Assembly (NCBI GenBank): GCA_024654345.1
Contig: JANLIN010000056.1
Span: 1 to 21,118, forward strand
From: Candidatus Komeilibacteria bacterium
GTDB taxonomy: Bacteria > Patescibacteriota > Patescibacteriia > UBA1558
Length of the DNA stretch: 21,118 nucleotides
Reading direction: 5' to 3'
Shown one piece after another: positions 4,272 through 21,093 of the stretch (the first letter of the stretch is position 1; each line of letters begins with the position of its first letter). The notes beneath the pieces are model-generated. The model was given only the letters and a program-made list of their open reading frames with translations. It was not told the origin of the DNA and did no database searches. A program made the translations under genes and the position numbers.

Positions 4272-4276
4272 AAATA

Positions 4277-5157: not shown

Positions 5158-5177
5158 CTTGAATGAAAAAAGTGCGT

Positions 5178-5966
5178 TTAGTTGCCGAAACCACCCATGG
5201 CGGCCTGGCTGAAATTGGCGGCTGATTGACTGGCGCGAACTGCCGATTGAGAGAAAAGCAGGAAGGCCTGGCGAATCTCTTTCTCTGTATTCTTCGGTGT
5301 CAGGATCCATTCATCAGGTATGCCCATGTCCGAGAATACCCGTTGGAAATCCGTACTACCATCATCAATGCCCATCGCTGCCACGATATGCATCTCTGTT
5401 TTTAACATGTCCTTCACCACCACCGCCACATCCTTGGCGCTGTACTTACGCGAGTGCTGATCACTGCCGTCGCTGATGATAAGCGTGATGGTGCGGGCCG
5501 GGACGCCATTGTCGGAGAATTCCTGCGCCTTGGCCAGAACAGTACCCAGTAGTACTATCGTCTGGTCATAGAGTGGGGTGCCCTGGTCAGGATTGTAGTT
5601 CTGAGTATCCATTATTTCCGCTTGTTCCACCATCGTGTACGGGTAAAGGATCTTCCCGTTTAGATAGCGATTATGCGCTAGTATATTGTCTTTCTGTTTA
5701 GAGGCGCGCAGGGAATTGAGTACCAGATTGTGACCGTTCCTGACCGCGGCGGCATTGCCGGCGAAACGGATAGACCCGGAATCATCCGGCATCATGCTTA
5801 CCAGTATTACCTCGCTGGCTTCAACATCGTCGACGGCCACGCCCAGCGCCGCCTGTATTTCGGCGCCGATATCCAGGACATTTAGTATCTGCTCAGATTG
5901 GGCGGACAGATTACCGTCTGCTTTGGCGTTGTTCACCAACTGACTTACTTTGCTTTGCTTGTTCAT
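5178..5966 (-). CDS. von Willebrand factor A (vWA) domain protein, TerY-like
   Basis: 262 aa from MNKQSK, with a strong AGGAGG RBS; I prefer this start to the track's upstream-extended 6128 start, which overlaps the previous gene. The MIDAS motif DDSGSI (DxSxS) and a second ISDGSD are present. The C-terminus has a Q/S-rich tail. Confidence 0.75.
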   Translation of the reverse strand: MNKQSKVSQLVNNAKADGNLSAQSEQILNVLDIGAEIQAALGVAVDDVEASEVILVSMMPDDSGSIRFAGNAAAVRNGHNLVLNSLRASKQKDNILAHNRYLNGKILYPYTMVEQAEIMDTQNYNPDQGTPLYDQTIVLLGTVLAKAQEFSDNGVPARTITLIISDGSDQHSRKYSAKDVAVVVKDMLKTEMHIVAAMGIDDGSTDFQRVFSDMGIPDEWILTPKNTEKEIRQAFLLFSQSAVRASQSAANFSQAAMGGFGN

Positions 5967-6042
5967 TTTGTGACCTCCTGGCTCCGACGATAGTGTCGAA
6001 GCCGTTTTTTGTGATTGAAAAATATTTTTCCGTGCTAGTGTC

Positions 6043-7086
6043 TTATAGATTGAGATCGGGCCAATCTTCCAAAGGTTGAGTCGTCTTGACGACATGCATG
6101 CCCGCCGCCGCAAAACGACGAAACGCATCGTCGGCTTGGTCGGTGAAATCTATAATACCCGGCACGACCACGGCGGAAGTACAATCTTCCAACAAGTAAA
6201 CCTTTTTGGCCAGTTCCGGATCGTGAGCTTGTATTTCATTGAGTAAGTCATCAATCGTCCAAGCCACGCAATGACTTTTGGCTTGGCCGGCAATGATAAC
6301 AGCGTCATATTTCATCAGCTTCTCAATAAAACGAGAATTACTCTGTGCGATCGGACGTCCGGTATGATCTTCCGTTATTTCCGGCTTCAAGACAGAATAA
6401 TTTTCTGTCAGTGGATTACCGCCTTTGATTTCGAAACCGGTTTGGCTGGTGCGTGCTAAATTGTGAAAGAAAACAGCTTCTTCGATAACCGCCGTCAGAG
6501 CGTGACCAATACCACCCAGCATGGCGTGGTAGGTCCAGATCATCAACGGATATTTTCCGTCTGCCGTCAGCTTGGCCACGTAGTGGCGCGCATATTTCTG
6601 CAGAAAGCTGTAACTACCGGTAATACTGTTGGCGATGGCGGGGTTTACTTTCCATATGCCCTTCTCAACATCCGTCAGCGTAATGATGGTTTGATTCCCG
6701 ATCGGATGTTCGCCCTGATCATTGATCCAAAACACCGGATGAAAGATTTGCATGGCGGTATGAGTGTCCATTGTCGGATCTATCTCTGTAATAACGCCTA
6801 GATAGCGATAGATGAATTCCGCCAATCGGACATTATCTTCGATGGCGCCCTTGCCACTGCGCCCCCCTACAAAAAGTTCAAAATCCGGGAGGCAGAAAGT
6901 ATTCTGCGCGTCTATTACCATCAAGCAGAGACGCGTCTTATCAACGGCGGCTTTCTTGATCTTGTGTTTGTCGGCCCATTCTCTGGCATCACGCGCCCGC
7001 TGTTCGTACGGAACTCTCCAGACACTATCGGCTTTGGACGCATCAAAGTGCTGAGGAATGGGTAATTCGTGGACTGATCTTTTCAT
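6043..7086 (-). CDS. Large nicotinamidase/isochorismatase-family amidase paralog
   Basis: 347 aa. Motifs are CLMVIDAQNTFC (catalytic Asp), DTHTAMQIFH (D-x-H-x6-H metal site as in nicotinamidases) and AGQAKSHCVAWTIDDL (catalytic Cys). About 150 extra residues lie between the metal site and the Cys relative to canonical ~190-aa enzymes. An AAAGGAG RBS lies upstream. Confidence 0.7.
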   Translation of the reverse strand: MKRSVHELPIPQHFDASKADSVWRVPYEQRARDAREWADKHKIKKAAVDKTRLCLMVIDAQNTFCLPDFELFVGGRSGKGAIEDNVRLAEFIYRYLGVITEIDPTMDTHTAMQIFHPVFWINDQGEHPIGNQTIITLTDVEKGIWKVNPAIANSITGSYSFLQKYARHYVAKLTADGKYPLMIWTYHAMLGGIGHALTAVIEEAVFFHNLARTSQTGFEIKGGNPLTENYSVLKPEITEDHTGRPIAQSNSRFIEKLMKYDAVIIAGQAKSHCVAWTIDDLLNEIQAHDPELAKKVYLLEDCTSAVVVPGIIDFTDQADDAFRRFAAAGMHVVKTTQPLEDWPDLNL

Positions 7087-7137
7087 GACTAATACTCCTT
7101 TCTAAGAGTTTTTTGTGAAGTTCGAAACTGTGTTTTT

Positions 7138-9003
7138 CTATGTTAAACGTAACAGATTTATTTCTCGACGCGATACCACGTAGAGCCCCTCTCGACCAGG
7201 ATGTAGATAAGACTGAGAGCTGACAAAGGGCTCGGTGTCAGGATACTCCTGCACGATCGCCAGGTTGTGGCCGCTTATACCAATCTTGAATATTCCTTCA
7301 TCGCTAGTCGAAAGTATTTTATCGCCGACCGGACATTTGCCGCGAATAGTACCAAGCCAACTACCATCGTCGGCTTCGGCGCTACCGATAGCGATAACGC
7401 TTCCGGCCGGCCCTATTACTTCGCACCGGTTAACGGTTTTGCCTTGAACGCGGCTACTGGTAAAAAACCAGGCGTTGTCAGCGACAAAAACAGTGGTGGC
7501 GTCGAGTAACTGACCCGTTATAGCGACCATATTTTTTACATCCTTCAATCCTTTCCGCTGATAATCAAACAAAAAGGTACGTCGGATTTCACCGGCCTGA
7601 TAAAATCCCAATCCCTGGTGTGCCCCGCTCCAAAGCAGAGTCTGATTGGATAAGGCCTGTCCCATGAATTCTTGGCCAAATTTTCCCCGGCGTAACAATT
7701 GTCCATTGTTGAGCCAAAACAGCCGGCCTGCACTGCTGTCAAACATCGGGATGTGGCGATAGTGATCCACGGCGTACTTGTTTTCTAGACGTTCCCGGTG
7801 GTATTCATGGATAACTCCGTTTAGACCCACCCAGGTAGTCTCGCCCCAGATCCGAAATCTGGCATTGGCGAAAGTTTCCGGAAAAGGTATTTTCCAACCC
7901 TCTTCTCTAACCAGTTGACCGTTTTCTCGGACCAGCCAGATTAGTCGCTCATTGTCAGTAGTAGCCTGGACAATCTGTCCTTTCGTCTGATAAAGACGAG
8001 TTGCCTTCACGGTACCGCGAATTACCGTTACCTCCCGGATAGCCGCCGGCGCCGCCGTACTACAAGTCGGACAGATGGATCGTGCGTGTTCCTGACCACA
8101 CTGCTGACAGGTAGTAAAACGGGTTAATTGCAGTAGTTTTTCCGGAAAGGGGTTTCTTTTGTCCTGGACAAATGTCTGATAAAAATAATCCAGCAAATCA
8201 TCAGAGAGAACACTGTAGTGAACCGCCGGCTTAGGATACTTTACTTCCGGATGAAAGACGGTAATCCGCTTGAGCGGACGTAGCTGATGGATTATTCGCT
8301 GTTTCTTGTCAGCCGGTCGGTAGATACCCCCATAAGGATCTACATACAGCAGACTATTCATCAGCATGACTGTAAAGGCATACCAATCCGAGGAGCTTGT
8401 AAACGGTTTGTATAGCTCGAGCGATTGGCGACGCGCGTCGGTCAGCAAAGGGTCAAGGAATTTGACAGTAAACATCCGACAAAGATAGCGTCCAAACTGA
8501 TAGCTGTCGGTATCTATCAGATAGGCTTGCTCATCTTTCACCAGAACATTCAAATCGTTAAAATCACCAACCACTACTTTCCTATCGTGCAAAGCCGAAA
8601 CAGCTTGGAGAAGCGAGCTGAATATTGTCAGTAGCGCGTTATTGTCCACTCTCCCCGGCCGGAACTTCTTGTCGCTGAAGCGCAACATTACTTCCGAGTC
8701 GGCAATGAGTGGCATACTGTAACCAACTATAAATCCCTTGCTATCTGACGCCAGTGCCACCGGTGCCACTATATTGGCCGGCAATCCAGCAGGAAAATCT
8801 GACAGTTTTGTTTGATGTTCCTCTAGCCTGTGCCGGGCCCCTTGTTGCTCCAGCGGCAGTCCGCGCAAATCGGGATGATGGGGAGACTTAAAAATTTTAA
8901 GTGCCAGTTTATCGTTTAGTCGATAAATATCGGCTTCTCCGCCCTTGCCAATGGCTTGCGCGGGAGTGATATTTATCGGATTGCCGGCTAAATAGATTTT
9001 CAT
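7138..9003 (-). CDS. Ser/Thr protein kinase-like protein with central zinc ribbon and C-terminal beta-propeller-like repeats
   Basis: 621 aa. It has a glycine-rich loop IGKGGEADIY, a Lys in ALKIFK, a catalytic loop HDRKVVVGDFNDLNVLV and LIDTDS (DFG-like). CQQCGQEHARSICPTC forms a CxxC...CxxC ribbon. Repeated W/G-rich blades follow. A GGAGG RBS lies upstream. The start overlaps the PP2C stop (ATGA). Confidence 0.7.
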   Translation of the reverse strand: MKIYLAGNPINITPAQAIGKGGEADIYRLNDKLALKIFKSPHHPDLRGLPLEQQGARHRLEEHQTKLSDFPAGLPANIVAPVALASDSKGFIVGYSMPLIADSEVMLRFSDKKFRPGRVDNNALLTIFSSLLQAVSALHDRKVVVGDFNDLNVLVKDEQAYLIDTDSYQFGRYLCRMFTVKFLDPLLTDARRQSLELYKPFTSSSDWYAFTVMLMNSLLYVDPYGGIYRPADKKQRIIHQLRPLKRITVFHPEVKYPKPAVHYSVLSDDLLDYFYQTFVQDKRNPFPEKLLQLTRFTTCQQCGQEHARSICPTCSTAAPAAIREVTVIRGTVKATRLYQTKGQIVQATTDNERLIWLVRENGQLVREEGWKIPFPETFANARFRIWGETTWVGLNGVIHEYHRERLENKYAVDHYRHIPMFDSSAGRLFWLNNGQLLRRGKFGQEFMGQALSNQTLLWSGAHQGLGFYQAGEIRRTFLFDYQRKGLKDVKNMVAITGQLLDATTVFVADNAWFFTSSRVQGKTVNRCEVIGPAGSVIAIGSAEADDGSWLGTIRGKCPVGDKILSTSDEGIFKIGISGHNLAIVQEYPDTEPFVSSQSYLHPGREGLYVVSRREINLLRLT

Positions 9004-9824
9004 GTTATTCCCCTCCTTTCCGGACCGACCTTTCGTATGACAACCAGGGTGGTGTCATCAGTTAGGTGGCCATTTTGCACTTCCATCCGGCTCTCCTGCC
9101 AGAGTGGCCGACTAACGTCGCGGTTAACCAACGTAAGCTGACGACGAACACTGTCCGGATTCTTGAAATACCGATCTTCCGTCCAGAAATTCAGCAACGG
9201 ACCGACTTCTCTGTCCTGACCGGGCACGATTTTATTGGCCGCCGCTACATAATCACCAATACCGTCAGTGGCTATCAACAGATGAGAAATGGCCGCCGTT
9301 TTTTCCTGCACCTTCATCTGCCACATAAACCGCTGATCCATGGGTTGAAATAGACCATAAGCGATGTAGGGTGGCTGATTGTCAGAAAATGGTCCGAGGG
9401 CGATATAATTGTCATTGCAGACAATTAAACCGTCACCGATTGCCGCTATGACCAGTCTATCTTCGTGGATTACCGCCGCGATAGCGGTGAATAGACCGTA
9501 GTCCTCGATGAATCTATTGGCGCCGCTAGGGTTGGGTCGTGTCAGCCAATACAACTCACGTAAAACATCCAAGCGCACGGTATCCCAGTACCGCGTGGAG
9601 CTGATATTCAGAGACAAATTTCTTTTCAGGCTGTTGGCTATCAGCTGAGCACCCAACTTGGCGCCAACTTCACTGCCGGGACTACTGCCACAACCGTCTG
9701 TCACAACGGCGATGATACTGTCATTGCCAGGCAAGATGCAGAAGGCGTCTTGATTGTTACGACCAGATTGCCGATGGTGACGTCCGATGACACTACCGCC
9801 GGCTATTTCAAACAAATCTTTCAT
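9000..9824 (-). CDS. PP2C-family Ser/Thr protein phosphatase
   Basis: 274 aa. Motifs are GRHHRQSGRNNQDAF (R-x-x-NQD), VVTDGCGSSPGSEVGAKLG (DGxGG...G) and LIATDGIGD (second metal-binding Asp). An AAGGAG RBS lies upstream. Confidence 0.75.
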   Translation of the reverse strand: MKDLFEIAGGSVIGRHHRQSGRNNQDAFCILPGNDSIIAVVTDGCGSSPGSEVGAKLGAQLIANSLKRNLSLNISSTRYWDTVRLDVLRELYWLTRPNPSGANRFIEDYGLFTAIAAVIHEDRLVIAAIGDGLIVCNDNYIALGPFSDNQPPYIAYGLFQPMDQRFMWQMKVQEKTAAISHLLIATDGIGDYVAAANKIVPGQDREVGPLLNFWTEDRYFKNPDSVRRQLTLVNRDVSRPLWQESRMEVQNGHLTDDTTLVVIRKVGPERRGIT

Positions 9825-9932
9825 GTTTATCTCCTTTTATGTATGTAGTTTTCAAAGATCTGGAACGCCTATCTCTTAGAGAAAGGATTCTACGTCAACC
9901 CGGAGTCTGGCCGAGCTGACGTTGAACTCTTT

Positions 9933-9961
9933 CTTAGTGTTAAATATACACTTACTAATAT
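9933..9961. repeat. Copy A of a ~27-bp direct repeat CTTAGTGTwAAwATATACAC..TA.TA flanking nrtR (palindromic core GTGTTAAATATACAC)
   Basis: It matches 10661-10689 in the same orientation at about 24 of 27 positions. It lies between the nrtR stop and the PP2C-kinase operon start. Confidence 0.5.
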
Positions 9962-9981
9962 GTAAAAAATTTTCTGTTTTT

Positions 9982-10659
9982 TTACAAAATATTAACCACT
10001 GCCAGAGATCGACTGGTAAATTCAAATAATGCCGCCGGCCGATTGGCCTCACCCCTTCTCTTCTTGCCGGTGGTCTTCACCAATCCTAACGACCCGACTT
10101 TTTTGCGAAAATTTCGCTTGTCGATCTCCTGATCCAAAATTATCTCGTATACTTTCTGTAATTCCGACAAAGTAAACTGCCGGGGTAACAAACTGTAAAC
10201 TATGTTGGTATAGCCGAGCTTGGAGCGCAGTCTCTTTACACCCGTCTTTAATATTTCCGCATGATCGTAAGCCAGCGCAGGTAGCTTGGCCACCGGCCAC
10301 CAACGCACGTCCGCGTATTCGGCGGTAGTCTTTAACATCAAACTTTTATCATACGGTAATAATGCGTAGTAGGCGACGGACAATACTCGACCGTAGGGAT
10401 CTCTTTTTTCCCCGCCAAAAGCATATAGCTGTTCCAAGAAAATATCAGACACGCCGGTCTTGGCCTGAAGGTGGCGACGCGCGGCTTTCTCGACTGATTC
10501 GCTGATTTTAACCATGCCGCCCGGCAAAGCCCATTTTCCTTGATAAGGCTTCTTTTTCATCTTTATCAACAGAACGTTGAGCGCCTCGCCTCGCAGGCTG
10601 AAAATAACCACATCCGTGGCGGCGGCGACAAATTTGAATTTTTGATAAGGTTTACTCAT
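9982..10659 (-). CDS. nrtR: NrtR-family Nudix-related transcriptional regulator of NAD metabolism
   Basis: 225 aa. The N-terminal Nudix fold has GKWALPGGMVKISESVEKAARRHLQAKTG. The C-terminal winged-helix region has FTLSELQKVYEIILDQEIDKRNFRKKV, typical of NrtR. It is located inside an NAD salvage cluster. Confidence 0.65.
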   Translation of the reverse strand: MSKPYQKFKFVAAATDVVIFSLRGEALNVLLIKMKKKPYQGKWALPGGMVKISESVEKAARRHLQAKTGVSDIFLEQLYAFGGEKRDPYGRVLSVAYYALLPYDKSLMLKTTAEYADVRWWPVAKLPALAYDHAEILKTGVKRLRSKLGYTNIVYSLLPRQFTLSELQKVYEIILDQEIDKRNFRKKVGSLGLVKTTGKKRRGEANRPAALFEFTSRSLAVVNIL

Positions 10660-11416: not shown

Positions 11417-11995
11417 TTGAAAAAACTATTATTTACTCTCGCACTAGCTCTTGCTCTGGCTGTATCTGCTCCTCTTTTCGGACAGATGCAGAATACACCA
11501 GCACAGCTATTAACCTCATTTGGAGGTGAAAAATCCAATATGATTGGCAATCTGGGGCTAAGAGGATCGGTGACTATATTTGCCGTCCCAAACGACAATT
11601 TATCTCAGTATTTCGCCTACACCGGCCCCGTTTTCACCACAGAAGATGGTTGGTGGGTTTCACCACAGATCGGCTTGGTAACCAATTGGTTCGCCAAAGA
11701 CGGTTTCATCCTTGCTTTGTGGGCGGAAAAATCCATGGGTGAGTGGAAAGTTTTCACTGAGTCTGAATTGTACAAATTCGGCAACGAACACGATTTCTAT
11801 GGATATTATTACGTCGATTATGCTCCTAATGGCAGTCTCATCGGCGCACAAATTGAGTTCGTCAATTCAGACTTCGTAGTCGGTCCGCACTACGGCTTCA
11901 CCACCGGCGTCTGGACAGGCAAATTGGAACTATACTTTGGCTTCCAGCAGGAAAGTTGGAATGTCAGAGTTGTGAACTCATTTAATTTTCAATAA
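11417..11995 (+). CDS. Secreted beta-rich protein with N-terminal signal peptide (possible small outer-membrane beta-barrel/lipocalin-like protein)
   Basis: TTG start with AGGAGG RBS. MKKLLFTLALALALAVSAPLFGQ is a signal peptide. Alternating aromatic/hydrophilic strands end ...VVNSFNFQ. A terminator hairpin follows at 11998-12027. Confidence 0.65.
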   Translation: MKKLLFTLALALALAVSAPLFGQMQNTPAQLLTSFGGEKSNMIGNLGLRGSVTIFAVPNDNLSQYFAYTGPVFTTEDGWWVSPQIGLVTNWFAKDGFILALWAEKSMGEWKVFTESELYKFGNEHDFYGYYYVDYAPNGSLIGAQIEFVNSDFVVGPHYGFTTGVWTGKLELYFGFQQESWNVRVVNSFNFQ

Positions 11996-11997
11996 AT

Positions 11998-12027
11998 AAA
12001 GAGCTGTTTTTAAAAAACAGCTCTTCT
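11998..12027. terminator. Bidirectional rho-independent terminator (AAAGAGCTGTTTT/AAAACAGCTCTTT palindrome flanked by A- and T-runs)
   Basis: Perfect 13-bp inverted repeat with T-runs on both sides. It sits between the convergent genes 11417..11995 (+) and 12031..12861 (-). Confidence 0.7.
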
Positions 12028-12030: not shown

Positions 12031-12861
12031 TTATTTATTATAACTTCCTCCTACGCTCATCACAGGTGAGGTATAAGAGATTTCTCCATATCTGGTGGAA
12101 AATAGTTTTTTTACTTTAAGCAAATGAAACAAATTGCCAATGACATTGCCCCGAAGCATACAACGCCGTTCACGACCTATCCCTCTTTCTTCTATCGCTA
12201 AGTCTTTAACACTTGCGTAACTGATGTGATAAAAAATTGTTTCTAAATTTACTTTTTCATTCTGTGCATCCTCTTCTGACTTACATTGAATTTCAAAAGT
12301 AAACAGTCCTTTTTTATTGGCAATCCGAGACTCAGCATTGATTGGCAATTCTTTTTTCTTAGCAAATACCGCCCCCAATCCATAGGCACCCAAAGTAAGC
12401 AAGGAGTATGGTATAAACTCCGATAGTGATGAAGCTTGATCAAATTGAGGGGAAAGAGAGATAGCTAAGACAAGAAAACTCACCAAAAGTGTGACACCAT
12501 TATTCAATTTAGTTGCCATTCTCCCAGCCGCAAACGCCAGTATCAAGTAGGGCCAATCAATTGCCACAACAAGAGGCGTCTGCGCAAATAATTGCTGATA
12601 GATCGGCGAGGATGAAACTACTAATGAATCACTCACTGCGGTTGAATCAACTGCGCTAACAGCCTCCGTCGTTCCGGCAACCAATCTTTCGCCATTTTCA
12701 TAAACATACACAATAATATCTGCCGCTACATCTAATATAATCCCCAAAAATACACTCTTTAACAAAACCCAAACGCTAACCAAGATCACTGAAAAAGAGG
12801 TATATCTTAAGCTGTAAACAGTTGCCAAACACCAGAGCCAGAAAATTTTTAGTCTATCCAT
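12031..12861 (-). CDS. Integral membrane protein (N-terminal multi-TM region plus C-terminal soluble domain), partner of the poly-zinc-ribbon protein
   Basis: 277 aa from MDRLKIF, with an AGGAGG RBS; the upstream gene's TAA lies between the RBS and ATG. I prefer this start to the track's 12975 start. Several hydrophobic helices are present. Confidence 0.6.
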   Translation of the reverse strand: MDRLKIFWLWCLATVYSLRYTSFSVILVSVWVLLKSVFLGIILDVAADIIVYVYENGERLVAGTTEAVSAVDSTAVSDSLVVSSSPIYQQLFAQTPLVVAIDWPYLILAFAAGRMATKLNNGVTLLVSFLVLAISLSPQFDQASSLSEFIPYSLLTLGAYGLGAVFAKKKELPINAESRIANKKGLFTFEIQCKSEEDAQNEKVNLETIFYHISYASVKDLAIEERGIGRERRCMLRGNVIGNLFHLLKVKKLFSTRYGEISYTSPVMSVGGSYNK

Positions 12862-12862
12862 T

Positions 12863-14200
12863 TTAATCCTCCTTATAATGTCCCACCTTACAGTGCGGGC
12901 ACAGTGTATATTCGATATCGCTCTCACACCAAGGACAGCTGTTTGTATCCTTATCAATAATAATAAGCTTGCCACAATCTTCGTTTGGACAAGGAGCTTT
13001 TAGCAACCCCGCTTCACAATGAGGACAGTCAGTCGCATCTGCCCAAATTAAACCGTCACAAACCGGACAACTTACTTCAACTAATGCTTTAGAACAAGTT
13101 GGACATTTTGTCTCATATGTCAAGTCTTCCTCCAAATAATGGTCGCTCCGCTTGCACAGATACAGATCTGCATTACATTCCGGACATTCCTTGTCACCAT
13201 CTATAATGACCGAATCACCACAAGAAGGGCATGGTGTTCTCTTCACCTCCGTGCCGCACTTGGAACATTTTTCCTCATCCTCATACATATCCTCGTCACA
13301 CTTTGGACAACTGTCTGGGTTGAGACTCTTAAGACAATTGGGACACGTTCCGCCATCTTCAGGATCTTGAGTTATATATTTTTTACATCGAGGACATACG
13401 TACAACGCAGAACCACACGCCGGACAGTCCTTATCTCCGTTAATAAATATATTACTAGTGCATTCCGGACATTTAGTTAGCTCCAGTTTTGTGTTGCAAT
13501 GACCACATTGACTCGAATCGGCATAAATACTAGTGCAGCAATTTGGACAAGAATCATATCTATATGTTCTTTGACAAGAAACGCACTCATCCAGTATATC
13601 CGGATTAACCGCGATAAATTCGTGACATCGCGGACAATTATACACGTCGCTGAGACAACTACCACACCGCATTTCGTTTATATCTTCTGGCGATAACATC
13701 TTTTCACAAGCAGGACATTCTTTTCTCCTATTCTCTGGCACAAAAACATCTCCTGGAATTACAGGTTCAGAATCATCATCGTAAACCCCATGGTTTCCTT
13801 GTAACTCATATTCATGCTCTTTCGATTCTCCGACATCTGGCGCAGCCCAAGGCATCTTCCACACTTCATCACTACCACTGACATATATCACGCTGTCAAA
13901 TCTTATATCCGGAAATTGCGTCGCCAGGCTATATAGCATCTGCTTTTTTTGATCATAGCCCCAGTGCTTTTCAAATTTGAAATCCGCACGTAGTTTTCCT
14001 AGCTGTTTCGAGAAAACAAAGAGTGACTTGTCCGGAAGCTCTATCACTACCTTAGAAACACCACCCAGAACCACTTTCTCCAAACGGCCTTCCATATCTT
14101 CCAATGGGTCTGACTGTGCCACTTCAGGCAAAGCGCCCTTAATAAAGTAACTTAGGATAGAGGTCACTAATCCAGGTATTGATGCTAGTACTTCTTTCAT
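12863..14200 (-). CDS. Poly-zinc-ribbon protein: ~140-aa Cys-free N-terminal domain followed by ~10 tandem CxxC-x(7-14)-CxxC zinc-ribbon modules
   Basis: 445 aa with repeated CPxC...CxxC units (CPACEK..CGSC, CPRC..CVSC, CPNC..CGHC, CPEC..CPAC, CPRC..CPNC, CPKC..CSKC, CPSC..CPEC, CPTC..CPVC, CPHC..CPNEDC, CPWC..CPHC). A GAGGT RBS lies upstream. A TTGACA-17-TAGATT promoter lies on the minus strand at about 14248-14276. Confidence 0.7.
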   Translation of the reverse strand: MKEVLASIPGLVTSILSYFIKGALPEVAQSDPLEDMEGRLEKVVLGGVSKVVIELPDKSLFVFSKQLGKLRADFKFEKHWGYDQKKQMLYSLATQFPDIRFDSVIYVSGSDEVWKMPWAAPDVGESKEHEYELQGNHGVYDDDSEPVIPGDVFVPENRRKECPACEKMLSPEDINEMRCGSCLSDVYNCPRCHEFIAVNPDILDECVSCQRTYRYDSCPNCCTSIYADSSQCGHCNTKLELTKCPECTSNIFINGDKDCPACGSALYVCPRCKKYITQDPEDGGTCPNCLKSLNPDSCPKCDEDMYEDEEKCSKCGTEVKRTPCPSCGDSVIIDGDKECPECNADLYLCKRSDHYLEEDLTYETKCPTCSKALVEVSCPVCDGLIWADATDCPHCEAGLLKAPCPNEDCGKLIIIDKDTNSCPWCESDIEYTLCPHCKVGHYKED

Positions 14201-14247
14201 TTTTACCTCATTTCTATATTGTTTTTAAATAGCCGTATTAATAGCCA

Positions 14248-14333
14248 AATCTATCCTAAAATTCTCCGCGTGTCAATAGAGAGTGAAAGTTATCCCCAGC
14301 AAACCATTGACAAAACTCAATTTATGTTATAGA
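14248..14333. promoter_or_regulatory. Divergent promoter region: minus-strand TTGACA-17-TAGATT (for the ZnR operon) and plus-strand TTGACA-15-TGtTATAGA extended -10 (for 14375..)
   Basis: The minus-strand -35 is the complement of 14271-14276 and the -10 the complement of 14248-14253. The plus-strand -35 is at 14307-14312, with TG at 14325-14326 and TATAGA at 14328-14333. Confidence 0.5.
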
Positions 14334-14374
14334 ATTCAGAATTGAATATTTATACATTAAAAAAGGAATAAAAA

Positions 14375-14875
14375 ATGGATTTTTCATTAGTCCCACTCTA
14401 TTTCATCCTCTTTGCAGTAATTGCTTTACCAATATTTATCCAAGTTAAAAAGCGCTTACTCATGGGTGACAGCTCGAACCATCAAAAAAAAGGTCTAGAG
14501 CACTCTGAATCCACTACTGGTGAGTCCAGAGCTCTATTACTCAATAAAAGGTTCAGCGAATTACTAAATGCGAAAGCTGACCCCATAGCAACGAAAGGCT
14601 TTAGGGATAGTACGATCAATTTGATAGATGGTAAGATTGTCAAGTGGAGTGATCTTGATTTCTCTGAGGAAATTTTAAATGACTTAGTAAGATTATCGCA
14701 AGTTCAGTGGTGCAAAGATATAATAAAAAAGATCCAATGCGATGAGGATTATTCTTCCGCTGATTACCCCAATTTCATTGAGTTAATTGATCTTCATGTT
14801 AGTAACGGAACTACCACCTGGCAAGAGCTTGGTATAAGCAAAGAGGAATTGAACCGGGTGTTGAATGAAAATTAA
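14375..14875 (+). CDS. Hypothetical protein with N-terminal transmembrane helix (166 aa)
   Basis: AAGGAA RBS; hydrophobic N-terminus LVPLYFILFAVIALPIFI. AT-rich. First gene of a two-gene unit upstream of pspA. Confidence 0.5.
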   Translation: MDFSLVPLYFILFAVIALPIFIQVKKRLLMGDSSNHQKKGLEHSESTTGESRALLLNKRFSELLNAKADPIATKGFRDSTINLIDGKIVKWSDLDFSEEILNDLVRLSQVQWCKDIIKKIQCDEDYSSADYPNFIELIDLHVSNGTTTWQELGISKEELNRVLNEN

Positions 14876-15200
14876 AGTAAATCACAATTCCGCACCGGAG
14901 AAGATCGCTGAAAAAATTCCGAGCGGAATCATGAAAATCATAGATAATGTGGGCAATACAGAAGTCACAGTTAGTGACATTCTATACGATTTAAAAGGCA
15001 CTCGCCTCAATTTTTCCTTCAAAGCTAGCTATGATGAACACTGTGTGTCAGTCAAAGGTAAGATGGATATTCTAAGAAATTGCGTTATCATGAATATAAA
15101 CTTACCAATGGTAGCACTTTTGTTCGTTAAAAGTGATGAAATCAAAAAAGTCATCACGAAAAAGCTAATTGAATTCATTCAAAACGAAGAAGCGGTTTAA
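14865..15200 (+). CDS. Hypothetical small protein (111 aa), start overlaps the previous stop
   Basis: The ATG overlaps the stop of 14375..14875, indicating translational coupling. A terminator follows. Confidence 0.45.
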   Translation: MKIKVNHNSAPEKIAEKIPSGIMKIIDNVGNTEVTVSDILYDLKGTRLNFSFKASYDEHCVSVKGKMDILRNCVIMNINLPMVALLFVKSDEIKKVITKKLIEFIQNEEAV

Positions 15201-15218
15201 AAATCGCTTCTTTTTTTC
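15189..15218 (+). terminator. Rho-independent terminator GAAGCG-loop-CGCTTC followed by TTTTTTT
   Basis: The stem overlaps the stop codon region of 14865..15200. A 7-T run follows. Confidence 0.6.
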
Positions 15219-15227
15219 AAATCCTTA

Positions 15228-15256
15228 TTGACATTAGCCTATATGTGTGCTAAGAT
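15228..15256 (+). promoter_or_regulatory. Sigma70-like promoter TTGACA-17-TAAGAT upstream of pspA
   Basis: Perfect -35 with 17-nt spacer, about 80 bp upstream of the pspA ATG. The same TTGACA-17-TAAGAT architecture occurs at 20040-20068 on the minus strand. Confidence 0.55.
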
Positions 15257-15338
15257 TGCTTATTAAATTATGATCGGACTTTAAAAAAAATAAACACCTA
15301 ATATTAGGCAAATTCATCAACAGTAACAGGAGGTTACA

Positions 15339-16166
15339 ATGGCTCTTCGAAAGAGAAGATGGTACCAAATTTTCGGCTTAATCGCGGATATGTTCAGAAA
15401 TGCAATATCTGATAATATCTCCGACGATATTAAGCTGGAATCAGATGCTCGTCAAATGATGGCCGGATTAGAACAAATGTCCAATCTGGTCTCCTACAGC
15501 ATGACCATGGCTGATAATAAATACAAGGAACTTGCACTGAAGGTGCAAAATTATCAGAGCCTTCAAGCTCAAGCTCAGAAGTTCTTAGAGCAGGGCAAAG
15601 AAGAAATGGCGCGTCGCTGCGTTGCCTTAAAACAGCAAGCGGCTACAGATATTGAAACGCTGAAAAGCGACTATGTTACTCTTCAGCAAGACGCCGAAGA
15701 CAAAGTGGCTCGTTTCAAATCGGAAAAGAGAAAAGTGGATACAAGACTTAGGGAATTACCGCGTTTGAAACAGGATGTCAAGCTGATCCAGCAGCAGAAG
15801 GAAATTGATAAAACTTTTTCCACTCTTAGCCTCGAGAGCCCGAGTTCATCTTTTGATGAGATAGCGGGCGAAATAGGCATGAAAAAGGGTCAGCTTCAAA
15901 ACAAGCGACTCTTAGAGGGGGATCCGACTGCTGCTATTGACAATGCCATAGTCAATCAATTACAGGAAGATAATATTAACCAGGAGATGGCTCGGCTACG
16001 TCAGAAAATTAATGCTCCCACTATTGAAGATGCAGAATATACGGAAGTAAATGATCCCAACCTTGGTGAAGCGTTAAATTTGCTGGAAAAGCCACGCTTT
16101 GGAAATATTCCCGATACAAATATTCGCGGCGCCAACGTCCACAATGAACAGAAAAAGGAGGAATAG
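15339..16166 (+). CDS. pspA: PspA/IM30/Vipp1-family (ESCRT-III-like) membrane-stress protein
   Basis: 275 aa coiled-coil protein. The N-terminus RRWYQIFGLIADMFRNAISDNISD parallels the PspA [23 protein letters not shown]. A central LESPSSSFDEIAGE parallels the PspA ALSGISSSSAMSAFERMEEKI. The RBS is AGGAGGT. Confidence 0.7.
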   Translation: MALRKRRWYQIFGLIADMFRNAISDNISDDIKLESDARQMMAGLEQMSNLVSYSMTMADNKYKELALKVQNYQSLQAQAQKFLEQGKEEMARRCVALKQQAATDIETLKSDYVTLQQDAEDKVARFKSEKRKVDTRLRELPRLKQDVKLIQQQKEIDKTFSTLSLESPSSSFDEIAGEIGMKKGQLQNKRLLEGDPTAAIDNAIVNQLQEDNINQEMARLRQKINAPTIEDAEYTEVNDPNLGEALNLLEKPRFGNIPDTNIRGANVHNEQKKEE

Positions 16167-16168
16167 AC

Positions 16169-16870
16169 ATGAACTGGCAGGATCTATTAGAATGGCAAAA
16201 TCTTATTTTTGCCCTTCCTTTTGTCGGAGCTTTGTTTTATTTAGTATTATTGGCTACTGGTACCTTCTCGGCCGATCATGACATAGACCATGACATAGAC
16301 CATGACATAGACCATGACATAGACCATGACATAGACCATGATCATGGCATAGAACACACTCATGATGTCAGCGGCTTTATGAAGGCTCTAACTCTACTAG
16401 GTCTCGGCAAGGTACCACTCTCGATCTTATTGACCACCTTTTTCATCACATTTGGCTTCTTTGGACTTGTAGCAAATGGAGTTCTTCAAAAAATCCTAGT
16501 CTTTCCGATAGTGTATCTGTGGGTATCACTTGCTACCACTCTATTCCTATCAATCATCTTCACTCGCTCAATAGCGATCGGGTTGGCCAAAATTCTACCG
16601 ACGACTGAAACTTATGCTTCAAAGCCGGGAGATTTGATCGGCCTAGGCGGAGAAATAATCTACACCGCCACCGAGTTCAGCGGAACATGTGATGTTTACG
16701 ATAAGTATAACACTCTGTTACGCAAGCAGTGCCGCATAAAAAAGGGAAATGAGCCCATTCCTCCAGGGAAGAAAGTAGTCCTTCTGGAATACGATGAGGC
16801 TAATGGCGAATACATTGTATCTGAAAATAACTTAATGGAATCTATCACATCACAATCACAGGAGGTATAG
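16169..16870 (+). CDS. NfeD/YqiJ/YuaF-like membrane protein (flotillin-associated) with N-terminal (DHDI)n His/Asp-rich repeat and C-terminal OB-fold-like domain
   Basis: 233 aa with AGGAGG RBS. TM helices flank a DHDIDHDIDHDIDHDIDHDIDHDHGIEHTHD tract. The C-terminal beta-rich domain follows. It sits immediately upstream of flotillin, with a 2-nt gap. Confidence 0.6.
   Translation: MNWQDLLEWQNLIFALPFVGALFYLVLLATGTFSADHDIDHDIDHDIDHDIDHDIDHDHGIEHTHDVSGFMKALTLLGLGKVPLSILLTTFFITFGFFGLVANGVLQKILVFPIVYLWVSLATTLFLSIIFTRSIAIGLAKILPTTETYASKPGDLIGLGGEIIYTATEFSGTCDVYDKYNTLLRKQCRIKKGNEPIPPGKKVVLLEYDEANGEYIVSENNLMESITSQSQEV
16274..16348 (+). repeat. In-frame 12-bp tandem repeat (CATGACATAGAC) x5 perfect plus degenerate flanking copies, encoding (HDID)n
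   Basis: Five identical contiguous 12-mers at about 16277-16336, with diverged copies on each side. Confidence 0.85.
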
Positions 16871-16872
16871 TA

Positions 16873-18735
16873 ATGGAACATCATACAAAAAAGAATTCCG
16901 GCGGTCTTATGGGGGTCGTCGCAGTACTATTCGGTCTCGCCTTCATAATCCTGCCCCTGATGTTCAGTGAGGCAGTCACAGGCACAGCGCAAGTTATTTT
17001 AACATCGTTCGGCGTTCTCCTGCTACTCACGGGCGGCATAGTGGTAACTATCACCAAGCTCTACGTCAAAACGTCGGCTAATGAGGCCTTCGTTCGAACA
17101 GGTATGGGGGGTGAAAAGACTATAATTTCCGGCGGTGCCCTTGTTCTTCCGGTCGTTCACAACATTATCTGGGTTTCGTTGGAAACAATGAAACTAGTAG
17201 TGAAAAGAACTGGTGCAACAGCTTTGATTTGCGGCGATAAATTGAGAGCTGATGTTGTCTCAGAATTCTACATAAAGATAGAAAGAGATGCTCAATCAGT
17301 GCAGTCGGCAGCTACCTCCCTTGGCGGCAGATCAGTTAACGGGGATAGCATTAAGGAGCTGGTGGAAGAAAAATTCGTCTCAGCTCTGCGTACTGTATCT
17401 TCAACAATGGAATTGATGGACTTACATCAAAACCGCGCCAAATTCGCTGGCGATGTCCAAGCAATAGTTAGTAAGGATCTCGCGCCAAACGGATTGACCT
17501 TGGAAACAGTGACAATATCTACCTTGGATCAAACACCGGTCAATTCTATGCAATCCGGCGAGAACATATTCGATGCTCAGGGAGCAAGAAAAGTTGCAGA
17601 AATCGTTGAAAGCCAACGCGTTGCTACAACTAAAATCAAAACCAAAGCTGATCAGGACGTTAAATCCGAAGAGGTTACTCGCGATAAATTCATCTTTGCC
17701 CAGGAATATGAAGCAGCTAAAGCTGAAGCTGAGCGCGATGCCTTAATAAAGAAGGTACAGGCAGAGCAAGAGCAAGAAGCTGCTACCGTTACCGCACAGC
17801 AGGAAGAGAAGACTGGAATTGCACAGGTGAAGAAAGAGGAAAACATTGCTCTAGCCGGTGTTACAAAAGAAAAGAACCTTGAAGTAGCTAACAAACAACG
17901 CGAGCAGGCTGCTGAAACCGCGGACATCGAAAAGCAGAAAGCAGTTGAATTGGCAGCGCAGGATAAAGAAATCGCTGTTGCCGGTAAAGAAAAGGAAAAA
18001 GCAGAGGCTCAAAAGTTGAAATTTGATGCTGAAGCCCTCGAAGAAGAATCAAGACAGTCGGTCAGGACAGTAACCGAAGTTGAAACTGCTGACCGTGCCA
18101 AGAAGACAGCTATCATAGCAGAGGAAGCGGAAGCCGCCAAATCCAAGGTAAAAGAAAATACAAAGGCGGATGTAGACGCATATACAGTAACAAAAAAAGC
18201 CTCTGCCGATATGGAAGCGGCCGAAAACAAGGCGCAGGCTATTAGAACTCAGGCACAGGCTGATAGAGACGCCAAAGTTGCCGAAGCTGAAGGTAAAAAA
18301 GCTCTGGAAATGATTCCGGTTGAAGTTGAAGGCGCCCGCGTAGAAGTTCGTCAAAAGGACGTCGAAGTAACAGGCACTGAACTGAAATACAAGGCTGAGC
18401 ACCAGGAAATTTCCAAGGAATTGGAAATAGCGTTAGCCAATATTGCGAAGGATAAAGAAATAGGAGTTGCCAAAGCTCAGGCTCTGGGTCAGGCACTTAG
18501 CTCAGCTAACATGCAAATCTGGGGAGATAGCAATATGATGAGCACTATTACCAAATTGTTTACAAATGGTCAGGCAGGAGCCGCCGCTGTTAACGGTTTT
18601 ATGAGCCAACTTGACGAAGAAGGTGAAAATGTCCTCGTGATATTAAAGACCTTAGTTGAAAAGTTTGGCCATAAACTTGGCGACAAAGCCAAAGCCAAAA
18701 TAACTGACGTTATCAGTGAAACAGTAAAAAAGTAA
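16873..18735 (+). CDS. Flotillin-like SPFH/band-7 protein with N-terminal membrane anchor and long E/A/K-rich coiled coil
   Basis: 620 aa with AGGAGG RBS. N-terminal TM helices are followed by an SPFH-like region (VRTGMGGEKTIISGGALVLPVVHN...). A flotillin-type EA-repeat coiled coil spans about 300 aa. A C-terminal globular tail follows. Confidence 0.75.
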   Translation: MEHHTKKNSGGLMGVVAVLFGLAFIILPLMFSEAVTGTAQVILTSFGVLLLLTGGIVVTITKLYVKTSANEAFVRTGMGGEKTIISGGALVLPVVHNIIWVSLETMKLVVKRTGATALICGDKLRADVVSEFYIKIERDAQSVQSAATSLGGRSVNGDSIKELVEEKFVSALRTVSSTMELMDLHQNRAKFAGDVQAIVSKDLAPNGLTLETVTISTLDQTPVNSMQSGENIFDAQGARKVAEIVESQRVATTKIKTKADQDVKSEEVTRDKFIFAQEYEAAKAEAERDALIKKVQAEQEQEAATVTAQQEEKTGIAQVKKEENIALAGVTKEKNLEVANKQREQAAETADIEKQKAVELAAQDKEIAVAGKEKEKAEAQKLKFDAEALEEESRQSVRTVTEVETADRAKKTAIIAEEAEAAKSKVKENTKADVDAYTVTKKASADMEAAENKAQAIRTQAQADRDAKVAEAEGKKALEMIPVEVEGARVEVRQKDVEVTGTELKYKAEHQEISKELEIALANIAKDKEIGVAKAQALGQALSSANMQIWGDSNMMSTITKLFTNGQAGAAAVNGFMSQLDEEGENVLVILKTLVEKFGHKLGDKAKAKITDVISETVKK

Positions 18736-18757: not shown

Positions 18758-18790
18758 AACCGGATGATCTATATCATCCGGTTTTTTTAT
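18758..18790. terminator. Bidirectional rho-independent terminator (AACCGGATGAT-CTAT-ATCATCCGGTT with flanking A-run and T-run)
   Basis: Perfect 11-bp stem between convergent flotillin (+) and the small membrane protein gene (-). Confidence 0.75.
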
Positions 18791-18793: not shown

Positions 18794-19114
18794 CTACAAC
18801 GCCCAAAACAGGACAACCACCAACCCCGCCGCTAACATCAGCACGAAGATATAGCCGAGGGTATAGCCGATAATTTTCAACCCCTCGCTGATATGACCTT
18901 TGAACATAATATAGGCCGGATAACCGAAGACTGTCAGAGCCATCAAGCCGGCGGAAAAGACGAATAGCAGGAGAAACAAGGCCCCGCCGGTCCAGCCGAT
19001 ATTACCCACTTGTTCCAGGGAATTCATCAGCCACGCCACCAGCAAACAGTAAATAATGACACCCAAAGCCTGCAAAAGGGCAATATTGGCCGGTTTAAAA
19101 TATTCTTGGCGCAT
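18794..19114 (-). CDS. Small integral membrane protein (106 aa, about 3 TM helices)
   Basis: Highly hydrophobic sequence. No clear SD. It ends at the bidirectional terminator. Confidence 0.45.
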   Translation of the reverse strand: MRQEYFKPANIALLQALGVIIYCLLVAWLMNSLEQVGNIGWTGGALFLLLFVFSAGLMALTVFGYPAYIMFKGHISEGLKIIGYTLGYIFVLMLAAGLVVVLFWAL

Positions 19115-19206: not shown

Positions 19207-20001
19207 TTAGCTGAATTTTTCTTTGAGTATCCGAAGCTCATGTTCCGTCTCAAGAGCATAGGTTCGTTCTGTTTTCCAGAGAACATAAGGAGGCTGAACC
19301 AATTCAATCCTGAACTTACCCCGACTCCAACCCCACAGTCTCTCTGGTGGACGGTAGTGAAGGATCGCGCAATTTACCAGATCCTGCTTTTTCCCGATGA
19401 CGAATAATTGTTCAGGGTCATGATGTTCCAATAGCTGACGTATCGCCAACATGACTGCGCTGTGGCAAAATACCGCCACCTTCTTGCCGGCCCAGTCGCG
19501 ACGAATGGTGTCCAAAAGACTGTGTAGCCGTAAGAAAAGATGAATATAATTCTCACCGCCCGGCGCTTTGGCGCTGAAGTACTTCCCATCACGTCTGTAC
19601 CGGCCGATATGATCGGGGTAATACTGTTCCAGGTATTCCGTCCCCATCATGTGTCCAACGCCGAAATCTTTTTCGTTCAACCTCGGATCTTGCCTCACCG
19701 TGAACAGCGGGAAAACCAACTCTGCTGTTTCGATAGCTCGTCTCATCTGAGAGGCGTACACAATGTCGGGTCTGAAATTAAGCCTGCCTCCGGTCTGACT
19801 GGATTGATCTCTCCCCATCGGACTCAGGGGCACCAAATGATTGGAGATATCAAAACCTAGGGCTTCCAATGGACTCTTTGCCAAACCTTCATCAACCCTT
19901 TCATAGCCAACCTGATGAAATCCATGCCCGTGACGAATAAATAGCATTTCCGGCCACGGTCCACGCAGCCATTCAAAAATATAGTTACCTAACCATCTCA
20001 T
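19207..20001 (-). CDS. Histidine phosphatase superfamily protein (phosphoglycerate-mutase-like)
   Basis: 264 aa with the RHG motif LFIRHGHG near the N-terminus and a second His context VFCHSAVM. The RBS is AGGAG. Confidence 0.65.
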   Translation of the reverse strand: MRWLGNYIFEWLRGPWPEMLFIRHGHGFHQVGYERVDEGLAKSPLEALGFDISNHLVPLSPMGRDQSSQTGGRLNFRPDIVYASQMRRAIETAELVFPLFTVRQDPRLNEKDFGVGHMMGTEYLEQYYPDHIGRYRRDGKYFSAKAPGGENYIHLFLRLHSLLDTIRRDWAGKKVAVFCHSAVMLAIRQLLEHHDPEQLFVIGKKQDLVNCAILHYRPPERLWGWSRGKFRIELVQPPYVLWKTERTYALETEHELRILKEKFS

Positions 20002-20301: not shown

Positions 20302-21093
20302 TTACCAATAGGGCTTAAAGTCATGATTGCCCAGTAAAGAACAGTGTCTGGCTAAATAGTCAGACGAACTAACTAGCTGATAGCGCTTTTTAAATTCATA
20401 TTTATCTATCGTCGGTATTTGGTCCAAAACTACTTGAAAATCATCAAAATCCCACGACGACTTTTTATTTAAAATAACCCGCGCTACCAGTAACAACTCT
20501 TCATTTGGCTCAAAGTTATTCCACAATTCTTTAGGAATAAACCTTTTAAAGTGATAATTACCCATAGTAGGATAAAGCTTTATCATCACTCTCTTACTAC
20601 GGCAGAGCTTAATCTTGCTATCAAAACAAGAGATATCGGGCAGACTCACCTTCAGCCGACACTTTAAATACTCGGCCGTATGAGCACAATAATTTTTTAT
20701 TTCTTCTTCCACCACATTGTGATCCCGCTCCGTTTTACTTAAAGTGCTGAACATTTTGGATAAATACGGTAAAGGATGATGAACAACCGTTGTCCTGGCT
20801 TTATTGATATCAAGACGATGGAGCTCAGAGAACACTCCCGACCCTAGACCGAACTCATGAATCATACCGGGAATTACCGCCAGGGGCGTTAAGTCTAACT
20901 TTTCGAACCTTTCAATAATTTCCGCTCGACCCTTTTTATATCGAGTCTTGCTGTTAACTACCATGCTGTTATACCGCTTTAAATCATCCAGCGGAATTCC
21001 CTGTTTCAAAGAAACAGGGATTTCTCTCAAAACAGAGTCAAAATAATTCTTGATGAAGCGATCCACCTCTAAAATCCATTTCTCCTTTTTCAT
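20302..21093 (-). CDS. Hypothetical protein (263 aa), AT-rich; weak polymerase-beta-like nucleotidyltransferase hint (GLGSG-x9-DIN), not asserted
   Basis: Long ORF with GAAGGA RBS. Lower GC than the NAD cluster. No confident motif recognised. Confidence 0.4.
   Translation of the reverse strand: MKKEKWILEVDRFIKNYFDSVLREIPVSLKQGIPLDDLKRYNSMVVNSKTRYKKGRAEIIERFEKLDLTPLAVIPGMIHEFGLGSGVFSELHRLDINKARTTVVHHPLPYLSKMFSTLSKTERDHNVVEEEIKNYCAHTAEYLKCRLKVSLPDISCFDSKIKLCRSKRVMIKLYPTMGNYHFKRFIPKELWNNFEPNEELLLVARVILNKKSSWDFDDFQVVLDQIPTIDKYEFKKRYQLVSSSDYLARHCSLLGNHDFKPYW

Follow-up and report, generated by a model that had tools for sequence, protein, structure and literature searches.

Why would a bacterium encode a chain of some ten zinc ribbons beside a membrane-scaffold module composed of a PspA-like protein, an NfeD-like protein and a flotillin? 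The question is raised by contig JANLIN010000056.1 from a metagenome-assembled genome of Candidatus Komeilibacteria, which belongs to the candidate phyla radiation (CPR/Patescibacteria). The window that we analysed is this entire contig of 21,118 bp. Its region 12031-18735 contains seven open reading frames (ORFs), and every ORF reported there by a first-pass annotation, made from the nucleotide letters without database searches, was recovered at its position. On the minus strand, a gene for a 445-aa cysteine-rich zinc-ribbon (ZnR) protein is followed by a gene for a membrane protein (mem276). The plus strand carries, in this order, ORFs of 166 and 111 aa, a terminator-like hairpin and the genes for the PspA-like protein, a YqiJ/NfeD protein and a YqiK-type flotillin. 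Judging from sequence and gene neighbourhood, the ZnR protein is probably an undescribed accessory part of the PspA/NfeD/flotillin membrane-scaffold system, since its relatives in CPR bacteria almost always adjoin the same genes.

The ZnR protein consists of a Cys-free N-domain, an acidic linker and about 10.5 zinc ribbons, in agreement with the initial description of roughly ten tandem ribbons behind a domain without cysteines. It contains 42 cysteines, none of which lies before residue 162, in 19 CxxC motifs and one CxxxxC. In the register of the Pfam model DZR (PF12773), which matched in four stretches and scored 71.8 bits where 27.3 would suffice (E 5e-20), the knuckles pair into ten ribbons and leave a single knuckle unpaired at the C-terminus; ribbon 8 has a degenerate first knuckle (C349-KRSDH). 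The array is built from a leading ribbon, three copies of an 80-aa unit of three ribbons (residues 189-268, 269-348 and 349-433) and the terminal orphan knuckle. The three ribbons of a unit are of distinct types, the copies are 31-39% identical to each other, and no tandem repeat underlies the array at the DNA level. Among the Pfam models only those of zinc ribbons matched the array (DZR, Zn_Ribbon_1, Zn_ribbon_3, Zn_ribbon_6 and DZR_2), while no rubredoxin or ferredoxin family of Pfam matched the protein at E<=0.1, so that a degenerate rubredoxin/ferredoxin-like array, which had been named as a refuting alternative, can be set aside. Sequence matches in the PDB were weak and fell on the ribbons of PolD, MAT1 and Nop10. 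Moreover, the array is strongly acidic (pI 4.5, with 52 D+E against 27 K+R in 284 aa), which disfavours the binding of nucleic acids or anionic membranes that the first-pass annotation had suggested for it. The ZnR protein is a cytoplasmic, acidic chain of about ten putative Cys4 metal-binding mini-domains behind a novel N-domain, and the metal that it binds is presumably zinc rather than another one.

That such an array is atypical was confirmed when 1.84 billion cluster representatives were scanned exhaustively with HMMER: 62 of them matched at E<=1e-3, and 11 reached E<=1e-30. When the ZnR protein, the PspA-like protein or the family alignment served as query in word-index searches for homologues, essentially only self matches came back. 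Additional loci (designated here by L numbers) were sought by a degenerate DNA motif for CPRCxxY[IL]xxDPx[DE], for which true loci made up 1/4 in genomes and 3/8 in metagenomes; viral contigs gave nothing. The best family matches have the entire architecture, that is a Cys-free N-domain of about 110 aa, the acidic linker and a varying number of three-ribbon units. Members are 261 to 873 aa long and have 13 to 38 CxxC motifs, and ribbon number changes in steps of the 80-aa unit. DZR proteins usually carry one double ribbon attached to other domains, whereas this family repeats one specific three-ribbon unit behind a domain of its own, although the ribbons of the window protein match DZR well above its cut-off. 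Three variants depart from the common plan. Protein P0016 has an N-terminal transmembrane (TM) helix in place of the N-domain, P0019 has a beta-carbonic anhydrase inserted between N-domain and ribbon array, and a 293-aa paralogue (L027, 8283-9164) consists of the N-domain and acidic linker with a helical C-terminus and no ribbons, which indicates that the N-domain is a separable module. The arrays of the window protein and of most relatives are strongly acidic (pI 4.3-4.6). In two loci, neighbouring ZnR paralogues form pairs (L001, 8287-13082; L027, 5223-8213) in which one member is acidic (pI 4.54 in L001 and 4.05 in L027) and the other basic (pI 8.6-8.8). All named family members come from CPR bacteria (Komeilibacteria twice, Falkowbacteria and Parcubacteria), and literature searches found no description of a poly-ribbon family. 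Four traits set the family apart from the known single- or double-ribbon partners of Psp/SPFH systems: an N-domain of its own, the three-ribbon unit, a dedicated membrane partner and a distribution that seems confined to the CPR.

An NfeD/YqiJ and flotillin pair lies at most five genes from the ZnR gene in 7/8 contexts with enough flank, the window counted. The first contexts that we recovered (L001, L006/L011 and L008/L010) gave no linkage to Psp or SPFH genes, and the contigs of further members reversed that view. In a second Komeilibacteria contig (L026), one strand encodes a 107-aa protein, a PspA-like protein, YqiJ, flotillin, the ZnR protein and a 263-aa membrane protein in this order; the PspA-like protein, YqiJ and flotillin are 37%, 47% and 49% identical to those of the window, and a further orthologue is 27% identical. 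Other loci keep the partners in different arrangements: ZnR, a 271-aa membrane protein, NfeD_TM and Band_7+Flot in L024; a ZnR-Pro_CA fusion, ZnR, the N-domain-only protein, a TM protein, NfeD, Band_7 and a 276-aa membrane partner in L027; ZnR, NfeD, Band_7+Flot, a carbonic-anhydrase-like protein and ClpB in L021; NfeD, Band_7, Pro_CA_2, three small ORFs of which the last encodes PspC, ZnR and an SPFH-like Major Vault Protein (MVP)-shoulder protein in L023, the one lineage with PspC near the ZnR gene; and GroEL, a TM-anchored ZnR protein, two small ORFs, YqiJ and Band_7 in L029. The order in L008 is GroEL, ZnR and a PspA-like gene that runs off the contig end (HMM E 3.7e-16), L019 ends after ZnR and the membrane partner, and in L006/L011 the ZnR gene stands at the contig start. 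A 242-aa gene of L027 that was suspected to be PspA-like proved to encode a multi-TM protein and was rejected.

The ZnR proteins of these loci share no more than about 30-40% identity, and the genes around them change in order and orientation; shared ancestry of one arrangement cannot explain the adjacency. By our own estimate, which assumes a genome of about 1000 genes with one or two SPFH genes, chance adjacency would amount to about 2% per context. The functional tie of the ZnR protein and its membrane partner to the module, which the first-pass annotation had proposed and for which it had recommended a test of co-occurrence, is thereby supported across several gene orders.

Further genes recur in or next to these loci. 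GroEL is encoded directly upstream of the ZnR gene in L029 (2-1261) and in the closely related L008 (2586-3764) and L010 (3468-5132), and GroES precedes GroEL in L010. Domains resembling beta-carbonic anhydrase occur in three ZnR/flotillin loci, as separate genes in L021 (13400-14071) and L023 (3307-3813) and as the ZnR fusion in L027 (5223-6986); the window has none. The MVP-shoulder gene of L023, a contig of an uncultured bacterium, lies directly downstream of the ZnR gene (7305-9914) and encodes 869 aa with a Major Vault Protein shoulder and repeat domains.

How secure is the module on the plus strand? Its reading as PspA-like, NfeD-type and flotillin holds, with a very divergent PspA-like protein. 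This 275-aa protein reached 21.8 bits with PF04012, below the curated cut-off of 33.9 (E 1.6e-4), and 20.3 bits with TIGR02977, where the cut-off is 242.95 (E 3.5e-4); both matches are collinear. By BLASTP, residues 11-224 align collinearly with residues 3-217 of E. coli PspA (from NC_000913), including the amphipathic N-terminal helix (E 0.004). PF04012 is also the top match of the L026 orthologue (22.8 bits, E 7.8e-5, residues 34-229 against 26-213 of 220), while the L008 relative has no Pfam match. A single-sequence AlphaFold2 model of the window protein (pTM 0.32) is all-helical, with helices at H2-24 and H30-163 among others, and shows one straight helix and no hairpin. A search of PDB sequences with the single protein found nothing relevant. 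In contrast, a profile of two sequences matched only Vipp1/IM30 (E 2.3e-4), and with the L008 member added all nine matches at E<1 were Vipp1/PspA, the best of them at E 3.3e-5 (residues 17-174 against 14-171). Because the signal rises with added orthologues and no competing family emerges, we accept the protein as a divergent PspA/IM30 homologue. The original PspA assignment therefore falls short by the Pfam cut-off but stands by the orthologue profiles. The N-terminus MALRK is conserved in L026 and supports the 275-aa start, which suggests that the deposited start, giving 258 aa, is too short.

The second protein of the unit matches YqiJ_N (PF21001) with 44.9 bits against a cut-off of 23 (E 1.5e-11) and E. 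coli YqiJ at E 1e-4; a gap of 2 nt separates its gene from the start of the flotillin gene. The NfeD OB-fold (PF01957) gave no match in the window protein, and the homologues of L021 and L023, which align with its C-terminal part, match it weakly (E 8.6e-5 and 6.9e-4). A His/Asp-rich loop follows the first TM segment and is conserved in the NfeD/YqiJ partners at most related loci (L026, L029, L027 and L023), which suggests that it may bind metal. The flotillin contains an N-terminal hydrophobic hairpin (segments at 12-60), an SPFH domain (Band_7, PF01145, 56.2 bits against a cut-off of 23.6, E 6e-15) and a long Ala/Glu/Lys-rich region. It shares 34% identity with E. coli YqiK across 457 aa, through the Ala/Glu-rich region (E 1e-64), and scores far below the cut-off of the NCBIfam FloT equivalog; we therefore class it as YqiK-like and not as a FloT orthologue. 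Together the three genes form a divergent representative of a class of neighbourhoods already in the literature, to which we return below.

The membrane partner of the ZnR protein had been described as overlapping it. From an upstream GTG (12975) the ORF indeed measures 314 aa and overlaps the ZnR gene. An ATG at 12861, however, sits 7 nt past AAGGAGG, a Shine-Dalgarno site within the last ZnR codons, and yields 276 aa, consistent with orthologues of 263-276 aa. This ATG is most likely the true start, so that the two genes abut and are probably translationally coupled. Public annotation is thereby corrected at two gene starts, for the PspA-like protein (15339) and for the membrane partner (12861). 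The mem276 protein has N-terminal hydrophobic segments, a C-terminal soluble domain of about 100 aa and the conserved motifs FLKS, AIDWPxxIxAFAAGR and ALSPE. Orthologues adjoin ZnR genes in L026 (E 6e-24), L024 and L019 and lie within the cluster in L027; no family of Pfam, NCBIfam, PADLOC or PHROGs matched. Both small proteins that had been noted upstream of pspA are present. For the 166-aa ORF no homologue was found in the related loci. The 111-aa protein corresponds over its full length to the 107-aa ORF of L026 (phmmer E 3.5e-5, 26% identity), and its position directly upstream of the PspA-like gene is kept there. It had no significant family match, and comparison with E. coli YjfI (CesT/Tir) gave nothing by BLASTP or hhalign.

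The arrangement of promoters turned out to differ in part from what had been supposed. Facing TTGACA sites do exist as consensus matches: TTGACA-17-TAGATT on the minus strand (14276 to 14248) for the ZnR operon and TTGACA-17-TAGAAT on the plus strand (14307-14335). The latter serves the two small ORFs, while the PspA-like gene has a site of its own at 15228. The ZnR operon is consequently divergent from the two-gene small-ORF unit and not from pspA, as had been claimed. Because of the hairpin upstream of the PspA-like gene and this separate TTGACA site, the region comprises three transcription units, each ended by a terminator-like site. Beyond the -35/-10 consensus, the three promoter regions share no operator. 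Searches with PADLOC and PHROGs gave zero matches for all seven module proteins, and we rejected an origin of the module as a defence system or from a phage on this ground.

Neighbourhoods of PspA with a band-7/flotillin protein and an NfeD-type protein of the YqiJ/YuaF kind have been published (Ravi et al. 2024, PMC11237479 section 19; Popp et al. 2022, PMC9239133). The window contains the same three genes as this class, with E. coli yqiJK for comparison: an ESCRT-III-like PspA homologue, a YqiJ-type protein and a flotillin with TM, SPFH and coiled-coil parts. The published class is built on the CesT/Tir-PspA dyad, often with an AAA+ ATPase (PMC11237479; PMC9239133). The window, in contrast, has no AAA+ gene in the module, its small protein upstream of PspA lacks detectable similarity to YjfI of the YjfI-YjfJ dyad, and its PspA-like protein is very divergent. 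Conversely, the published neighbourhood lacks the poly-ribbon protein and its membrane partner, both of which the window has.

Zinc-ribbon proteins in pspA operons have been described as such (PMC11237479 section 19; PMC9239133), and the Psp/SPFH partners of this kind are known as single or double ribbons, namely YdjG, YdjI/YdjL and ZnR-PspC fusions (PMC11237479). In B. subtilis, recruitment of PspA and of the SPFH protein YdjI to the membrane depends on YdjG and YdjH (PMC8581546; bioRxiv 10.64898/2026.02.06.704340). YdjG (SamG) combines two zinc ribbons with an NTF2-like domain and a TM segment, and YdjI has an SPFH domain and a C-terminal zinc finger (PMC8581546; PMC11237479; bioRxiv 10.64898/2026.02.06.704340). 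Both the pspA-ydjGHI (samGHI) operon and the window encode, alongside PspA and SPFH proteins, a zinc-ribbon protein that acts or, in the window, would act at the membrane; the window has the components in split form, as a soluble ribbon protein and a separate membrane protein. Compared by description, the ZnR protein has about ten ribbons instead of two and a novel N-domain instead of the NTF2-like one; the window lacks the TPM-domain protein YdjH, its flotillin has a membrane hairpin of its own and hence no obvious need for a recruiter, and the ZnR protein does not qualify as a YdjG/SamG-like recruiter. A precedent for ribbons as adaptors between polymer and membrane comes from haloarchaeal CdpC, which tethers FtsZ1 to the membrane and has multi-zinc-ribbon relatives in DPANN and Asgard archaea (bioRxiv 10.64898/2026.07.16.738847). 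This precedent, likewise drawn by description, extends to small-genome lineages, whereas CdpC is unlike the ZnR family in its partner (FtsZ), its architecture and the domain of life in which it occurs.

What, then, could the ZnR protein do? On balance, and with some reserve, we favour a role as an accessory adaptor of the NfeD-flotillin assembly, and of PspA where it is present, within a membrane-maintenance cluster. PspA and Vipp1 form ESCRT-III-like polymers that bind and stabilise stressed membranes, SPFH proteins, flotillins among them, assemble on the membrane into large rings or cages, and NfeD-type proteins are dedicated partners of SPFH proteins. We read the PspA-like/YqiJ/flotillin unit as the known scaffold of ESCRT-III-like and SPFH parts that stabilises and organises the cytoplasmic membrane. 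In Komeilibacteria, the 111-aa protein of the small-ORF unit and the PspA-like protein next to it make up a conserved dyad. The ZnR protein would be held at the membrane by mem276, with one relative using its own TM helix instead. Its repeated three-ribbon units could offer many equivalent protein-binding sites and would suit contact with many identical subunits, such as those of a flotillin ring or cage or of a PspA polymer. Such a role would resemble that of YdjG/SamG as recruiter of YdjI and PspA. What points to an adaptor is the recurrent gene neighbourhood, the coupling of the mem276 gene, the variant anchored by a TM helix, and an array that is acidic and changes its ribbon number in modules. 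Gene identities, the family with its rarity and repeat architecture, and the conserved neighbourhood are observed, while physical interaction, tethering via mem276 and multivalent binding are inferred.

Several observations weigh against this role. The contexts come from about a dozen family members, and several contigs are too short to judge. A PspA-like gene lies near the ZnR gene in three lineages only (the window, L026 and L008), the membrane partner occurs in only five contexts, and L001, a 17-kb locus of a more distant subfamily, has MscS, two ZnR paralogues and a Na/H exchanger and no SPFH or Psp gene. In the window itself, the ZnR and PspA operons have separate promoters with another unit between them. 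For the N-domain no recognisable fold relative was found, so that it gives no pointer to what it binds.

The 42 cysteines in some ten Cys4 sites could instead point to a zinc or redox switch. Under oxidative, electrophile or metal-limitation stress the sites would lose their metal, as in Hsp33 or ZAS anti-sigma factors, and as the array unfolds, the flotillin/PspA scaffold would be triggered or released; alternatively, the protein would serve as a holdase activated by stress. Proteostasis and stress genes in the neighbourhoods are consistent with this (GroEL in L008, L010 and L029; ClpB, an HtrA-like protein and NifU/cysteine desulfurase in L021; FUR and an EncFtn-like protein in L026), as are the potentially metal-binding loops of the YqiJ/NfeD partners and the fused or adjacent domains related to zinc enzymes of the beta-carbonic-anhydrase type. 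However, no redox-sensor family matches any part of the ZnR protein, adjacency to chaperones may be incidental in small CPR genomes, and ribbon number that varies by three-ribbon units fits a scaffold better. We consider a switch possible but unlikely.

The same metal sites, about ten per chain and with up to 38 CxxC motifs in the long paralogues, would also suit a buffer or cargo that stores zinc (or iron) in or under a flotillin or vault-like cage, together with the YqiJ loop. The association with cage-forming SPFH proteins, the vault-like protein of L023 and the His/Asp loops of the NfeD partners could be read in this way. Yet Cys4 ribbons are structural sites that hold a very tightly bound, slowly exchanging metal, unlike metallothionein clusters; the conserved N-domain and the dedicated membrane partner suggest specific protein contacts, and the neighbourhood has no conserved metal transporter. 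Storage therefore strikes us as improbable.

Zinc ribbons are also found in many transcription and translation factors, and the ZnR protein might bind DNA or RNA and control the adjacent stress genes. Its weak PDB matches, the divergence of its gene from neighbouring promoters and the basic paralogues of L001 and L027 would agree with such a regulator. The low isoelectric points of the window protein and most relatives, the lack of any helix-turn-helix or other DNA-binding domain found, the absence of a shared operator-like repeat in the three promoter regions, and the TM-anchored variant and coupled membrane partner, which point to the membrane, make it very improbable. Just as improbable is a coincidental neighbourhood, in which the ZnR-membrane pair would be unrelated to Psp/SPFH genes and merely lie nearby, since the separate transcription units of the window, the bare L001 locus and the orphan status of the ZnR and PspA-like proteins in word-index searches are outweighed by the recurrence of NfeD and flotillin beside divergent ZnR proteins in shuffled order, far above the estimated chance rate. 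The adaptor role described above thus remains the reading that we prefer, and the features of the locus are collected in Table 1.

Table 1. Features of the poly-ribbon locus and its scaffold module in the window (NUV82 numbers are deposited names; a dot marks features without a single strand).
Feature	Position	Strand	Basis
Bidirectional terminator-like hairpin closing the ZnR-membrane operon	11998..12026	.	Site scan
Membrane partner mem276, 276 aa	12031..12861	-	ATG and AAGGAGG; hydrophobic segments; orthologues
Poly-zinc-ribbon (ZnR) protein, 445 aa, NUV82_01710	12863..14200	-	Pfam DZR, Cys motifs, HMMER family
ZnR array, aa 162-445	12866..13717	-	DZR matches, CxxC count, repeat comparison
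Cys-free N-domain of ZnR protein, aa 1 to ~120	13841..14200	-	Conserved alpha/beta module, no known family
Back-to-back sigma-70-like promoter sites	14248..14335	.	Consensus matches only
Orphan protein, 166 aa, one N-terminal TM helix	14375..14875	+	ORF list, hydrophobic segments
Small protein, 111 aa	14865..15200	+	107-aa orthologue in L026
Terminator-like hairpin with U-run between small-ORF unit and PspA-like gene	15186..15213	+	dG -14 kcal/mol, z -3.65
Promoter-like site TTGACA-17-TAAGAT, extended TG, upstream of PspA-like gene	15228..15256	+	Consensus match
Divergent PspA/IM30 (ESCRT-III-like) protein, 275 aa, NUV82_01725	15339..16166	+	PF04012, TIGR02977, BLASTP, orthologue profiles
YqiJ-type (NfeD-like) membrane protein, 233 aa	16169..16870	+	PF21001; E. 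coli YqiJ
Perfect 12-nt tandem repeat, 5.4 copies, coding (DHDI)n in YqiJ loop	16277..16341	+	Repeat scan
YqiK-type flotillin, 620 aa	16873..18735	+	PF01145; E. coli YqiK
Intrinsic-terminator-like site closing the PspA-YqiJ-flotillin unit	18758..18783	+	Site scan

The module is flanked on one side by a gene for a 192-aa protein that has no family and whose N-terminus resembles a signal peptide (11417-11995) and on the other by genes for a 106-aa protein containing three or four hydrophobic stretches (18794-19114), a histidine phosphatase (19207-20001; His_Phos_1, E 4e-22) and a 263-aa orphan (20302-21093). Farther away, the minus strand carries a cluster for NAD salvage and regulation (1177-10659) with an NrtR-type Nudix regulator (9982-10659), NAPRTase (1986-3284), a NUDIX gene (1177-1884), an isochorismatase/nicotinamidase-like gene (4277-4984), a second, weak isochorismatase-like ORF (6043-7086) and several ORFs without a family. 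Inside this cluster lies a kinase-phosphatase pair (7138-9824, minus strand), in which the genes for a 621-aa kinase-like protein and a PP2C phosphatase overlap by 4 nt; the 621-aa protein has a weak protein-kinase/RIO-like core, faint matches to MkoA and PD-T4-6 of PADLOC and a match to phrog_37888.

Overall, our analysis overturns nothing established, but it defines two uncharacterised protein families, one built from the N-domain and three-ribbon units and the other comprising the membrane partner, and it extends the unexplained pairing of zinc ribbons with Psp and SPFH proteins, as in YdjG, YdjI/YdjL and the ZnR-PspC fusions, to an extreme modular form. In a bolder and distinctly unlikely version, the family would be a new class of SPFH/ESCRT-III co-factors, confined to the CPR as sampled: a metal-loaded "bead chain" whose number of units would set or read the size of a flotillin, vault-like or PspA assembly, and whose Cys4 sites, together with the NfeD His/Asp loop and the recurrent beta-carbonic-anhydrase-like domains, would make scaffold assembly responsive to zinc, redox or pH state. 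If true, this would be a metal-gated membrane-stress switch that has no described counterpart. Few membrane-organising systems of bacteria are as widespread as flotillin/NfeD pairs and PspA, yet the contents and binders of flotillin cages are largely unknown. In CPR bacteria, with their tiny genomes, unusual envelopes and lack of genetics, the ZnR protein offers a concrete, testable and lineage-specific candidate for a client or adaptor of the NfeD-flotillin scaffold.

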